From Escherichia coli (GTDB taxonomy: Bacteria; Pseudomonadota; Gammaproteobacteria; Enterobacterales; Enterobacteriaceae), in the NCBI RefSeq assembly GCF_024700885.2, contig NZ_CP117016.1: a stretch of 64,000 bases of DNA. The stretch is one strand, 5' to 3'. The notes under the pieces were generated by a model, which was not told where the DNA came from, did no database searches, and saw nothing but the letters and a program-made list of their open reading frames with translations. Shown here one piece after another: positions 21,365 through 56,438 of the stretch. The first letter of the stretch is position 1; every line of letters starts with the position of its first letter. The translations under genes and the position numbers were made by a program.

Positions 21365-22360
21365 TCAGGTGGAACAACGGATCAACAGCGGGCAAGGGAT
21401 CCGCGTCACTCTTCCTCCTTCACGACCTTCAATAATATGCAATGCAGCTTCCCGCCCGATAATGTCATGTGGAAGCTGAATTGTGGTCAGCGGCGGTAAA
21501 AACAGATGCCCGACGCCAACCAGATTATCAAAGCCCATTACGGCGACATCCTGCGGGATACGTACCCCCTTCGCCAGGAGAACCTGATAAGCGACAAAGG
21601 CTGCGCGATCGTTACCACATATCAGAACATCAAAATCTGGTTTGCCAGATTTGAAGTGGTCATTGAGTAAACTTGCGAGATCGGTGTAGTGATCATCACC
21701 TGTTGCCATGTGAAATTGTTTCACCTCAGCCAGATCTCGTCCAGCATCACGCCAGGCCTGCTCAAATCCCTGCCGACGATACCCTGTTGCCAACGCACTT
21801 TCCGGTAGCCAGAAGCATAACGGTTGACGATAGCCCGCCGCGAGCAAATGCTGTGTTGATTCATATTGTGCAGTGTAATCATCAGGGATATAACTGGGTA
21901 ACGCTGGGTCATCCGCCACACAGTTCGCCAATACAATATTTTCACCATACAGAGACTCAGGCAGCGTGATATGTCGCAGCCCCATTGTAGTATAGATAAT
22001 GCCATCCGGACGGTGGGCAAGCAGCTGACGTGCCGCGCGGGCAGCGTCATCTTCAGAAAAAATATTGATTAAAAAACTATTCCAGCCGAACTCGCTGGCG
22101 GTTTGCTCAATGGCAAGCAGAATATCAACAGAGAAAGGAGTGGTAGCAGTGTCCTGCGCCAGCACGGCGAGAGTCGACGGCTTACGTCCTTGAGCGCGCA
22201 TCTTACGGGCGGAAAGATCAGGAACATAATTCAGGGTCTGGATTGCCTGCAATACGCGGTCACGCGTTGCAGGACGCACAGATTCTGCATTATGCATCAC
22301 CCGGGAGACTGTCATCATCGACACTCCCGCCAGGCGTGCGACATCCTTTAATGAAGCCAT
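21365..22360 (-). CDS. cscR: LacI-family transcriptional repressor of the csc genes
   Basis: 331 aa from MASLKDVARLAGVSMMTVSRV… (HTH then periplasmic-binding-like sugar domain); the longer track ORF (from 22558) adds an implausible N-terminal extension. Confidence 0.85.
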   Translation of the reverse strand: MASLKDVARLAGVSMMTVSRVMHNAESVRPATRDRVLQAIQTLNYVPDLSARKMRAQGRKPSTLAVLAQDTATTPFSVDILLAIEQTASEFGWNSFLINIFSEDDAARAARQLLAHRPDGIIYTTMGLRHITLPESLYGENIVLANCVADDPALPSYIPDDYTAQYESTQHLLAAGYRQPLCFWLPESALATGYRRQGFEQAWRDAGRDLAEVKQFHMATGDDHYTDLASLLNDHFKSGKPDFDVLICGNDRAAFVAYQVLLAKGVRIPQDVAVMGFDNLVGVGHLFLPPLTTIQLPHDIIGREAALHIIEGREGGRVTRIPCPLLIRCST

Positions 22361-22590
22361 ACCCAAGCCGTTTGCCGTAAAACGGGCACTGTAGCAGAAA
22401 CAGACGTCACTGGCGAGATCCAACGATATTCTCAACGCCCTATCACCCGACACGGCAATACAATAAAAAATAACAATAATTCCCGGACAATTGTGCCCAA
22501 TTCCGCCTCTGTTCTCGCCAACGAGTAACCATATAGGCAAGTAGGTAAAACATGCCAACTGGCATCGCCAACCTGGAGAAGAAAATATAA

Positions 22591-22821
22591 ATATGGATCA
22601 TTGTGCTGCCGCTGTATCCCGACATCAGCCCGGAAATTATTGCGATTGCTATCGGTTCAGGTGCGATTGGCTGCACGATCGTTACGGACTCGCTTTTCTG
22701 GCTGGTGAAGCAATATTGCGGCGCTACGCTCAATGAAACATTTAAATACTATACGACAGCGACATTTATCGCTTCAGTCGTCGCTCTGGCGGGCACATTC
22801 CTGCTGTCATTTATCATCTAA
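22591..22821 (+). pseudogene. dsdX: 3' remnant of D-serine transporter gene dsdX (GntP family), truncated by the csc insertion
   Basis: About 76 codons of hydrophobic GntP-like C-terminus (…IAIAIGSGAIGCTIVTDSLFWLVKQYCG…FLLSFII) with no N-terminal body, ending 17 bp before dsdA. Confidence 0.7.
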
Positions 22822-22838
22822 GCGCAAAGAGACGTACT

Positions 22839-24167
22839 ATGGAAAACGCTAAAATGAACTCGCTCATCGCCCAGTATCCGTTGGTAAAGGATCTGGTTGC
22901 TCTTAAAGAAACCACCTGGTTTAATCCTGGCACGACCTCATTGGCTGAAGGTTTACCTTATGTTGGCCTGACCGAACAGGATGTTCAGGACGCCCATGCG
23001 CGCTTATCCCGTTTTGCACCCTATCTGGCAAAAGCATTTCCTGAAACTGCTGCCACTGGGGGAATTATTGAATCAGAACTGGTTGCCATTCCGGCTATGC
23101 AAAAACGGCTGGAAAAGGAATATCAACAACCGATCAGCAGGCAACTGTTACTGAAAAAAGATAGCCATTTGCCCATTTCCGGCTCCATAAAAGCACGCGG
23201 CGGGATTTATGAAGTCCTGGCACATGCAGAAAAACTGGCTCTGGAAGCGGGGTTGCTGACGCCTGAAGATGACTACAGCAAACTGCTGTCTCCGGAGTTT
23301 AAACAGTTCTTTAGCCAATACAGCATTGCTGTGGGCTCAACCGGAAATCTGGGGTTATCAATCGGCATTATGAGCGCCCGCATTGGCTTTAAGGTGACAG
23401 TACATATGTCTGCTGATGCCCGAGCATGGAAAAAAGCGAAACTGCGCAGCCATGGCGTTACGGTCGTGGAATATGAGCAAGATTATGGTGTTGCAGTCGA
23501 GGAAGGACGTAAAGCAGCGCAGTCTGACCCGAACTGTTTCTTTATTGATGACGAGAATTCCCGCACGTTGTTCCTTGGGTATTCCGTCGCAGGCCAGCGT
23601 CTTAAAGCGCAATTTGCCGAGCAAGGTCGTATTGTCGATGCTGATAACCCTCTGTTTGTCTATCTGCCGTGTGGTGTTGGCGGTGGTCCTGGTGGCGTCG
23701 CATTCGGGCTTAAACTGGCATTTGGCGATCATGTTCACTGCTTTTTTGCCGAACCAACGCACTCCCCTTGTATGCTGTTAGGCGTCCATACAGGATTACA
23801 CGATCAGATTTCTGTTCAGGATATTGGTATCGACAACCTTACCGCAGCGGATGGCCTTGCAGTTGGTCGCGCATCAGGCTTTGTCGGGCGGGCAATGGAG
23901 CGTCTACTAGATGGCTTCTATACCCTTAGCGATCAAACCATGTATGACATGCTTGGCTGGCTGGCGCAGGAAGAAGGTATTCGTCTTGAACCTTCGGCAC
24001 TGGCGGGTATGGCCGGGCCTCAGCGCGTGTGCGCATCAGTAAGTTACCAACAGATGCACGGTTTCAGCGCAGAACAACTGCGTAATGCCACTCATCTGGT
24101 GTGGGCGACGGGAGGTGGAATGGTGCCGGAAGAAGAGATGGAGCAATATCTGGCAAAAGGCCGCTAA
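22839..24167 (+). CDS. dsdA: D-serine dehydratase (PLP-dependent)
   Basis: 442 aa ORF beginning [19 protein letters not shown]…, with PLP-lysine region (SGSIKARGG). Confidence 0.95.
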
Positions 24168-24275
24168 TTAATTTTCAATGCAGCATCGCCATCCTTTCCC
24201 TGGGTGAGCGATGCTGCCGATGGCGCAGGCTTAAGATTCTACCGTCTTACCTGCTATAGCTCTCTCTTTTTACCA

Positions 24276-25814
24276 TCACCCAACACCTTTCGCTGTAAAC
24301 GGCGGTTTCGCAAACCAAACCAATACCGTAAGTAAGATAAAAGCAATAGCCGCCATACGGAAAATCTCATTTGCAGAAATTGAAAGTGATTGCTGAGTTA
24401 TTTCATTATTAATTTCATTAAGAACCCCTGAAAGCGAACCATAGTATTTATCCATAATTTGTGACGATGAATTAAACACGGGGTTAAATTGATCGATGGT
24501 TGCTGTCAACTGACTATGGTGTAACGATTCGCGTCGTCCCCACAGCGTCATTGTCAACGACGTACCAACTGATCCTGACAAGGTACGAAAAAAATTACTC
24601 ATACTCGAGGCATTAGCAAATTTATTATCTGGCAAACCTGAAAACGAAATCGTTGTTAAGGGTAAAAAGAAACAGGCGACGGCGAATCCCTGAAAAAACT
24701 GTGGCAAAATGATGCCTGTAAAATCAATCGTTGGCATAAATGTCACAGAACGCCAGTAATAGCAAACCGCATACATCAAAAAACTAAATGTCACTAACAA
24801 CCGCATGTCTATTTTGTTGCCATAACGTCCTATCAAAGGTGAAATTAATAGTGGCATGATGCCGATGGGCGCATAAGCAAGTCCGGCCCATATCGCATTA
24901 TACCCCATCGTTTCCTGGAGTAACTGCGGCATAAGGACGATCGCCCCAGAGTAAAATAAATATGCGCATGTGATACTCACAATACCAATGGTGAAATTAC
25001 GGGACTTAAATAAACTGAGATCAAGAATCGGATTCTCTGAGGTCGACTCCCAAATGACTAAAGAAATCAGAGAAATAACTGACACTACTGTTAGTATTAT
25101 TATTGTACTCGAGTTGAACCAATCCAGATCGCGCCCTTTATCAAGCATTATCTGCAAGCCACCAACACCGAGCACTAACAGGGTCAGTCCTGGTAGATTC
25201 ATTTTGACCGGTGAAGTCTCAGTTTCTCTTCCTTTAAGTAAGGTTAAGCATAATGTCAGGACGATAATCCCCATTGGGACATTGATTAAAAATATCCAAC
25301 CCCAGCTAAAGTTATCGCAAATGTAGCCACCCAATATCGGCCCACATATCGGAGCGATAATTACGGTCATTGACCATAATGCCAGAGCAAATGTTCTTTT
25401 TTCTGGCGGATAATTCCTTAATAATAAACTCTGTGACAGTGGAATTAACGGCCCCGCCATTAATCCCTGAACGACTCTAAAAAATATCAGCACATCAAGA
25501 TTGGTCGATAAACTACACATTAAGGAAGACAGCGAAAAAAAAGTGACTGAAAGTAAAAATAACCTTAATTCGCCTATTCTTTGTGCCAGCCTGCCGGTAA
25601 CAGGGATCGCAATGGCATTTGCTACGCCAAACGAAGTGATAACCCAGGTGCCTTCGTCTGTTGATGCTCCCAGAAAGCCAGATATTGTCGGTATTGCGAC
25701 GTTAGAAATAGTGGAATCCAACATTTGCATAAACGTCGCTAATGACAATGCAATAGTAACGCACCATAACGTCCCACCGGTTAATGGTGCCGGAGTTGAT
25801 TTAGTGATTGCCAT
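24276..25814 (-). CDS. emrY: multidrug efflux MFS transporter (EmrB paralogue)
   Basis: 512 aa 14-TM MFS ORF; overlaps emrK by 1 bp; synteny with evgAS. Confidence 0.95.
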   Translation of the reverse strand: MAITKSTPAPLTGGTLWCVTIALSLATFMQMLDSTISNVAIPTISGFLGASTDEGTWVITSFGVANAIAIPVTGRLAQRIGELRLFLLSVTFFSLSSLMCSLSTNLDVLIFFRVVQGLMAGPLIPLSQSLLLRNYPPEKRTFALALWSMTVIIAPICGPILGGYICDNFSWGWIFLINVPMGIIVLTLCLTLLKGRETETSPVKMNLPGLTLLVLGVGGLQIMLDKGRDLDWFNSSTIIILTVVSVISLISLVIWESTSENPILDLSLFKSRNFTIGIVSITCAYLFYSGAIVLMPQLLQETMGYNAIWAGLAYAPIGIMPLLISPLIGRYGNKIDMRLLVTFSFLMYAVCYYWRSVTFMPTIDFTGIILPQFFQGFAVACFFLPLTTISFSGLPDNKFANASSMSNFFRTLSGSVGTSLTMTLWGRRESLHHSQLTATIDQFNPVFNSSSQIMDKYYGSLSGVLNEINNEITQQSLSISANEIFRMAAIAFILLTVLVWFAKPPFTAKGVG

Positions 25815-55056: not shown

Positions 55057-55578
55057 ATGAAACATTCATTTGAAGTAAAACTTGCCGCTGTAAATCATTA
55101 CCTGGCCGGTCATGCAGGCATCATTTCTACGGCAAAACTCTTTCAACTTTCTCACACCAGCCTCTCACACTGGATTAATCTTTTTCTTCTTCACGGTCCT
55201 CGGGCACTGGATTGCAGACACAAGCGTAGCTATTCTCCTGAAGATAAACTTTGCGTGGTTCTTTATGCTCTCGGGCATTCTGAGTCTCTACCCCGGGTAG
55301 CTGCCCGGTTTAACATTCCCAGCCACAACACGGTTAAAAACTGGATAAAAGGCTACCGCAAATCTGGTAATGAGGCCTTTATCAGGCGCAGGAAGGAGAA
55401 AAGCATGACCCGTTCTGATGATACCCATGAAAACGAGGCAAACATGACGCCGGAAGAGATGAAGAATGAGCTGCGTTATCTTCGCGCAGAAAATGCATAT
55501 CTGAAAGCCATGCAGGAGCATCTCCTGGAAAAAAAGCGCCAGGAGCTGGAGAAAAAACGAAAGTCATCCGGAGCCTGA
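55057..55578 (+). CDS. IS3-family transposase OrfA (HTH / leucine-zipper part)
   Basis: 173 aa from MKHSFEVKLAAVNHY…; ends just after the A AAA AAG slippery heptamer (55530-55536). Confidence 0.85.
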   Translation: MKHSFEVKLAAVNHYLAGHAGIISTAKLFQLSHTSLSHWINLFLLHGPRALDCRHKRSYSPEDKLCVVLYALGHSESLPRVAARFNIPSHNTVKNWIKGYRKSGNEAFIRRRKEKSMTRSDDTHENEANMTPEEMKNELRYLRAENAYLKAMQEHLLEKKRQELEKKRKSSGA

Positions 55579-55682
55579 GGTGCGGACACTGCCAGCCTGA
55601 CCTGTTAAAGGCTGCAGGGCTGGCCAGAAGCACGCTGTACTACCAGCTGTCACTGCAGAAGGCTAAGGACAAGTATGCTGAT

Positions 55683-56438
<756 letters not shown>

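Follow-up and report, generated by a model that had tools for sequence, protein, structure and literature searches.

Organization of the dsdA locus

The window, a stretch of 64,000 nucleotides of Escherichia coli DNA (contig NZ_CP117016.1), contains a dsdA gene for D-serine ammonia-lyase at 22839–24167 on the plus strand (442 aa, 1,329 nt), which was recognized by its open reading frame, tblastn, NCBIfam profiles and annotation. The gene is intact, as the initial annotation had held: its product matches K-12 DsdA with 98.6% identity across all 442 residues (tblastn), covers positions 1–431 of the 431 in the TIGR02035 equivalog profile with 806.6 bits against a cutoff of 368.25, and scores 773.9 bits against NF002823 (cutoff 246). 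Six substitutions distinguish it from the K-12 enzyme, namely G101R, L142P, D143E, Q261E, T417A and N435E. The reading frame has no internal stop and encodes the motif SGSIKARGG, whose lysine at residue 118 is the PLP-binding lysine (K118) of E. coli DsdA.

Directly upstream of dsdA lies a dsdX remnant of 219 nt at 22604–22821 on the same strand, consisting of the last 72 codons and the stop codon, with support from tblastn and blastn, the DsdX profile NF007395 and RefSeq. It corresponds to residues 374–445 of K-12 DsdX with 71 of 72 residues identical, and it covers positions 374–445 of 445 in NF007395 with 146 bits against a cutoff of 618. RefSeq classes the same sequence as a pseudogene of DsdX, "missing N-terminus". 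Judged by these matches, the remnant is a pseudogene fragment of a GntP-family permease and not a transporter. The initial annotation had counted about 76 C-terminal permease codons ahead of dsdA. The open frame does span 76 codons from stop to stop (22591–22818), but only 72 of them derive from dsdX, since the homology starts sharply at 22604 in the junction alignment. The recombination junction is therefore placed between 22603 and 22604, at codon 374 of dsdX. The possibility that the fragment is a chance open reading frame or a part of an unrelated gene was ruled out by the 71/72 identity to the DsdX C-terminus; the fragment aligns to DsdX itself, not to a complete unrelated gene.

The cause of the orphaning is the adjacent csc sucrose island, to which the initial annotation had drawn no connection; nor was a textbook polymorphism recognized there. 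The island measures 5,570 bp (17034–22603), extends from argW to codon 374 of dsdX, and holds cscB, cscK, cscA and cscR in canonical order between argW and the truncated dsdX. The left anchor of this variable region is argW, encoding tRNA-Arg(CCU), at 16959–17033 on the plus strand (ARAGORN, blastn, junction alignment and the RefSeq annotation of strain SW4848). Blastn and the junction alignment showed that K-12 homology stops exactly at the last base of argW (17033) and picks up again at 22604 inside dsdX. Neither K-12 nor a dsdCXA-type O145 genome has at this site a counterpart of the island's left end (17034–17474), which, following the annotation of SW4848, includes a DUF4942 gene fragment of 50 codons directly after argW (17243–17395).

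Next comes cscB, encoding the sucrose:H+ symporter, an oligosaccharide MFS transporter, at 17475–18722 on the minus strand (open reading frame, TIGR00882 with 594 bits, annotation). The fructokinase gene cscK follows at 18794–19708, also on the minus strand (open reading frame; NF006957 with 506 bits, above the cutoff of 450), and then cscA, encoding invertase (sucrose hydrolase), at 19924–21357 on the plus strand (open reading frame, TIGR01322 with 477 bits, annotation). The LacI-family repressor gene of the csc genes, cscR, occupies 21365–22360 on the minus strand, with an annotated start at 22360, LacI-family matches and the RefSeq name in addition to its open reading frame. It sits between cscA and dsdA and is convergent with cscA, the two stop codons being 7 bp apart, and cscA and dsdA share a strand. 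The region upstream of cscR (22361–22603) closes the island on the right; it is a spacer of 243 bp between cscR and the dsdX remnant, has no K-12 homology and should hold the cscR promoter. In EC20-72C-1, EJN001 and BH100N, this spacer shows 12-bp indels at ~22421 and ~22554.

What K-12 has in place of the island is the CPS-53 prophage, dsdC, the DsdC-dependent dsdC–dsdX promoter region and the initial 1,120 bp of dsdX, all of them replaced here. To the right of dsdA, the conserved flank begins with emrY at 24276–25814 on the minus strand (open reading frame, blastn, annotation), and K-12 synteny runs on through emrK and evgAS. No direct repeat of the argW 3' end bounds the island, its 11–20-mers occurring only once in the window; an attR-like integrase site at the right boundary was thus rejected, and this boundary is a deletion or recombination junction inside dsdX instead of an att site. 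Strain 1190 carries an identical cscR–dsdX'–dsdA junction (100% identity over 3.1 kb) with a CPS-53-like prophage (torI) upstream of csc. Because a prophage is present there where the window has argW, the argW side varies independently of the fixed right junction.

Two further features of the window were recorded at a distance from the locus. An IS3-family IS1397 transposase gene with a programmed frameshift, mapped from the SW4848 annotation, is located at ~55057–56405 (+) between mntH and ypeC. Compared with K-12, the yfdF-equivalent region (13452–14720) is interrupted, the blastn alignment breaking at 13820–13882; its annotation in SW4848 consists of a hypothetical protein and a partial pseudogene at 14538–14720.

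Absence of dsdC and its control region

According to the account of Norregaard-Madsen et al. (1995), DsdC acts from the divergent control region to activate dsdXA in K-12 and UPEC. When K-12 DsdC was compared with the window by tblastn, the best match had an E value of 0.54 over 33 aa. Strain SW4848 is separated from the window by 13 SNPs in 64 kb, and the genes annotated in its equivalent 64 kb include none of the LysR type. Moreover, the K-12 dsdC–dsdX intergenic region gave no blastn match in the window, positions 4385–16967 of the K-12 locus being unmatched. The window consequently holds no dsdCXA operon, as it has neither a divergent dsdC nor a dsdC–dsdX control region. The structural reading offered earlier, in which dsdA is orphaned, dsdX truncated and dsdC absent, is thus borne out by the alignments to the K-12 locus.

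A copy of dsdC elsewhere in the genome was sought with a chimeric query that joined the 2,604-bp cscA–cscR segment of the window to 2,273 bp of K-12 sequence reaching from dsdC across the missing dsdX portion. Each of the 26 chromosomes with 100% identity to the csc segment of the window, SW4848 included, showed a single place for this query, and therefore no dsdC or 5' part of dsdX exists elsewhere in those 26 chromosomes. Among 5,426 complete E. coli genomes, dsdC was found in 2,734, in up to two places per genome, and never on a plasmid. On these near-identical proxy chromosomes, the combination of a distant dsdC homologue with a DsdC box upstream of dsdA, against which the initial annotation had weighed its claim, was not encountered.

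Comparison with known dsd and csc loci

The replacement of dsdC and a part of dsdX by csc at the argW hotspot is documented (PMC4366372, PMC3032704, PMC13054288, PMC11251922), and the window is a csc-type allele of the argW–dsd variable region, an ordinary, well-documented and already known polymorphism of E. coli. The phenotype of this type was described by Alaeddinoglu and Charles in 1979, the csc/dsd locus of EC3132 and EDL933 was sequenced in the work outlined by Jahreis et al. (2002), and the arrangement was covered by the survey of Moritz and Welch (2006). Afterwards, Connolly et al. (2015, PMC4366372) examined the argW–dsd region of 1,591 genomes, and the csc/dsd allele was used as a PCR marker in 2026 (PMC13054288).

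The closest characterized counterpart is the cscBKAR–dsdX'–dsdA locus of O157:H7 EDL933/TUV93-0, which shares with the window the gene order, the 219-nt dsdX pseudogene and the intact 1,329-nt dsdA. O157:H7 Z570 aligns to window positions 21301–24400 as one piece with 98.3% identity, and it therefore has the same cscR/dsdX' junction. The nucleotide divergence between O157:H7 and the window is about 2%. The left flanks differ, since z3622 lies upstream of cscB in O157:H7 whereas argW and the short DUF4942 fragment take this position in the window. In addition, the host of the window belongs to a non-O157 lineage; among the genomes nearest to it are O166:H15 and isolates from lake water, chicken and humans.

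In E. coli W (ATCC 9637) and EC3132, compared here by description, the csc regulon (cscR, cscB, cscA, cscK) is likewise flanked by the variable argW region and a truncated dsdX, and the use of D-serine is lost (PMC3032704). The dsdX and dsdA genes of E. coli W are described as pseudogenes or silent beside cscR, and the csc regulon of EC3132 is also attributed to Bockmann et al. (1992). Unlike the window, E. coli W has a lambdoid prophage at argW (PMC3032704). The dsdCXA locus of K-12 and UPEC is collinear with the window in dsdA, the dsdX 3' end, the dsdX–dsdA spacer with its ribosome-binding site and emrYK–evgAS, at 97.5% identity, but its dsdC, divergent control region and DsdX residues 1–373 are missing from the window. 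In K-12, the CPS-53 prophage is located between argW and dsdC.

Prevalence and spread of the csc-type allele

Window positions 21300–24400 were used as the query for a prevalence survey in which a match spanning the junction defined the csc type. Of the 5,426 complete E. coli genomes, 2,660 were covered across the same csc/dsdX' junction, O157:H7 and O26:H11 among them. The remaining genomes match only from query position 1305 (window position 22604) onwards and have a full dsdX. Six csc-type genomes spanning the identity range were sampled, O157:H7 Z570, O26:H11 and BH100N among them, and in each the dsdX pseudogene measures 219 nt and dsdA is intact with 1,329 nt. Since 2,660 junction-bearing and 2,734 dsdC-bearing genomes together approximate the whole collection, the two alleles are nearly mutually exclusive.

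Some records combine the csc junction with a further dsd copy. A second place for dsdC/dsdX-5' was observed in a few csc-junction chromosomes (H75, H80, H86, H92 and H98; NZ_CP033884.1, NZ_CP027134.1, NZ_CP021879.1, NZ_CP021202.1 and NZ_CP058661.1), and BH100N (H15; NZ_CP025703.1) has a second dsdX–dsdA place besides its csc junction. The occasional retention of dsdC alongside csc has been reported previously (PMC11251922).

The nucleotide diversity of seven csc-type sequences was 0.004–0.014 from the junction to ~23050 and 0.03–0.04 deeper in dsdA. This gradient suggests hitch-hiking of the first ~450 bp with the island and breakpoints of recombination inside dsdA. The junction is identical everywhere, so these sequences are most simply explained if the junction arose once and then spread, with exchange of alleles, by homologous recombination in the shared flanks; a low diversity by the junction that rises inside dsdA is what would be expected from one origin and subsequent recombination.

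Conservation of the orphaned dsdA

The dsdA gene was intact in all seven csc-type genomes sampled. In a small sample of 12 genomes, pairwise Nei–Gojobori dN/dS of dsdA was 0.060 among the seven csc-type alleles and 0.048 among the five dsdCXA-type alleles, and the synonymous divergence between the two classes equalled that within them. Strain AVS0171 was left out of this comparison. Its dsdC, dsdX and dsdA (L014, NZ_CP124355.1, 330–4161) are all annotated as frameshifted pseudogenes, and these three adjacent frameshifts look more like an assembly error than biology.

A low dN/dS could be taken as a sign of ongoing selection on dsdA in the csc background, but this reading was rejected because the non-functional dsdX remnant is biased alike and because diversity rises away from the junction. 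The polymorphic codons of the remnant comprise five synonymous and one nonsynonymous, and the sole replacement (V/I) is polymorphic in intact dsdX genes too. These patterns suggest that the dsdA polymorphism was imported by recombination from dsd+ alleles and shaped in dsd+ backgrounds. Likewise, the persistence of an intact dsdA in csc-type genomes would be due to recombination with dsd+ alleles and not to selection in the csc background.

Expression of dsdA in the csc context

The expression of dsdA at the same junction has been studied experimentally in O157:H7, where the gene proved silent. Reporters carrying dsdA in its native context gave low but non-zero activities of 63–134 RFU (O'Boyle et al., PNAS 2020, PMC7486766), and wild-type EHEC O157:H7 accumulates D-serine and is inhibited by it without growing on it (PMC7486766). 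In variants that had become D-serine-tolerant spontaneously, deletions of 1,120 bp or 5,637 bp put dsdA under cscAp or z3622p (PMC7486766). After these fusions, dsdA expression rose 33-fold and D-serine was consumed, and CscR proved not to be a direct repressor of dsdA (PMC7486766). The initial annotation had proposed that dsdA is either silent, read through from another promoter or constitutive. The first of these agrees with the low reporter activity in O157:H7, while read-through and constitutive expression do not, dsdA being active there only after the cscAp or z3622p deletions.

By analogy with O157:H7 TUV93-0, whose region is ~98% identical, we infer that dsdA would be silent in the strain of the window as well. 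The csc island stands where dsdC, the divergent dsdC/dsdXA control region and dsdX codons 1–373 would otherwise be, and dsdA is retained together with the final 72 dsdX codons because both lie right of the crossover. With the activator and its target promoter both gone, dsdA would be silent or transcribed at a very low basal level, and the cell would be unable to catabolise D-serine though its DsdA enzyme would still be functional. That the enzyme itself is still functional is taken from the reactivated O157:H7 allele, for which D-serine consumption was shown. Considering the locus as a whole, we regard it as very probable that the window represents a csc-type allele with a silent but functional dsdA, which originated once and was spread by recombination.

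A rival reading holds that dsdA is weakly constitutive from a promoter inside the dsdX 3' remnant, so that basal D-serine detoxification keeps the gene under selection. The position proposed for this promoter (~22724) falls within the remnant, the wild-type-context reporters of O157:H7 are not at zero (PMC7486766), and an intact dsdA in seven of seven csc-type genomes with a dN/dS of 0.06 would fit a gene in use. On the other hand, sigma-70 consensus promoters numbered 0 on either strand in 21300–24400, against 3.8 expected by chance, and a relaxed scan of the plus strand yielded only 8/12 matches, none of them at about −115, so that no dsdA promoter was identified. EHEC, moreover, accumulates D-serine, is growth-inhibited by it and cannot grow on it. 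The low-ratio signature of dsdA is explained by polymorphism from dsd+ alleles, because the same low nonsynonymous-to-synonymous ratio is seen in the dead remnant. A weak promoter in the remnant is accordingly unlikely.

Still less probable is a sucrose-conditional read-through from the CscR-repressed cscA promoter, running antisense through cscR into dsdX'–dsdA. Its appeal lies in the shared strand of cscA and dsdA, the 7 bp between the cscA and cscR stop codons and the absence of a convincing predicted intrinsic terminator on the plus strand between cscA and dsdA (21357–22838), as well as in the findings that cscAp drives dsdA once cscR is deleted and that an isogenic cscR deletion gives D-serine tolerance (PMC7486766). 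However, the wild-type fragment from cscAp to dsdA had low activity in the reporter, and the authors of that study regarded the changed chromosomal context, not the loss of CscR alone, as the principal driver (PMC7486766). About 1.5 kb of untranslated RNA opposed to the convergent cscR would, in addition, be prone to Rho termination and transcriptional interference, and csc+ strains are consistently D-serine-negative in tests without sucrose (PMC11251922, PMC13054288). A weak hairpin without a proper T-run was noted at 22787–22806.

An activation of dsdA in trans by DsdC from elsewhere, for instance from an additional dsdCXA copy of the kind found in K1 strains, is by far the least probable of these readings and is largely refuted. 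Second copies do exist in the species, with dsdC in up to two places per genome, a second dsdC/dsdX-5' place in the few csc-type chromosomes listed above, a second dsdX–dsdA place in BH100N and dsdC at times kept with csc (PMC11251922). Yet all 26 chromosomes identical to the csc segment of the window have one place only, plasmids carry no dsdC, and the target of DsdC, the dsdC–dsdX intergenic promoter, is deleted in the window. The residual alternatives of a weak promoter or read-through would not change the classification of the locus as csc-type.

Biological significance

A sucrose-positive, D-serine-negative phenotype is reported for strains with the csc-type allele (PMC4366372, PMC11251922, PMC13054288, PMC3032704), and the strain of the window is predicted to be sucrose-positive, sensitive to D-serine and unable to use it. 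There is a slim chance that the orphaned dsdA is conditionally expressed, by read-through from cscA or from a weak promoter in the remnant, and couples D-serine detoxification to sucrose; if true, such sucrose-coupled expression would account for the survival of an intact dsdA in about half of the species. The arrangement described here is nothing new mechanistically, and the question of dsdA expression has already been answered experimentally in O157:H7 (PMC7486766). The csc/dsd swap at argW is a classic metabolic trade-off allele that sets sucrose use against D-serine tolerance and shows a correlation with both pathotype and niche: the csc allele is almost always the one found in LEE-positive intestinal pathogens, whereas dsdCXA is carried by UPEC and NMEC.
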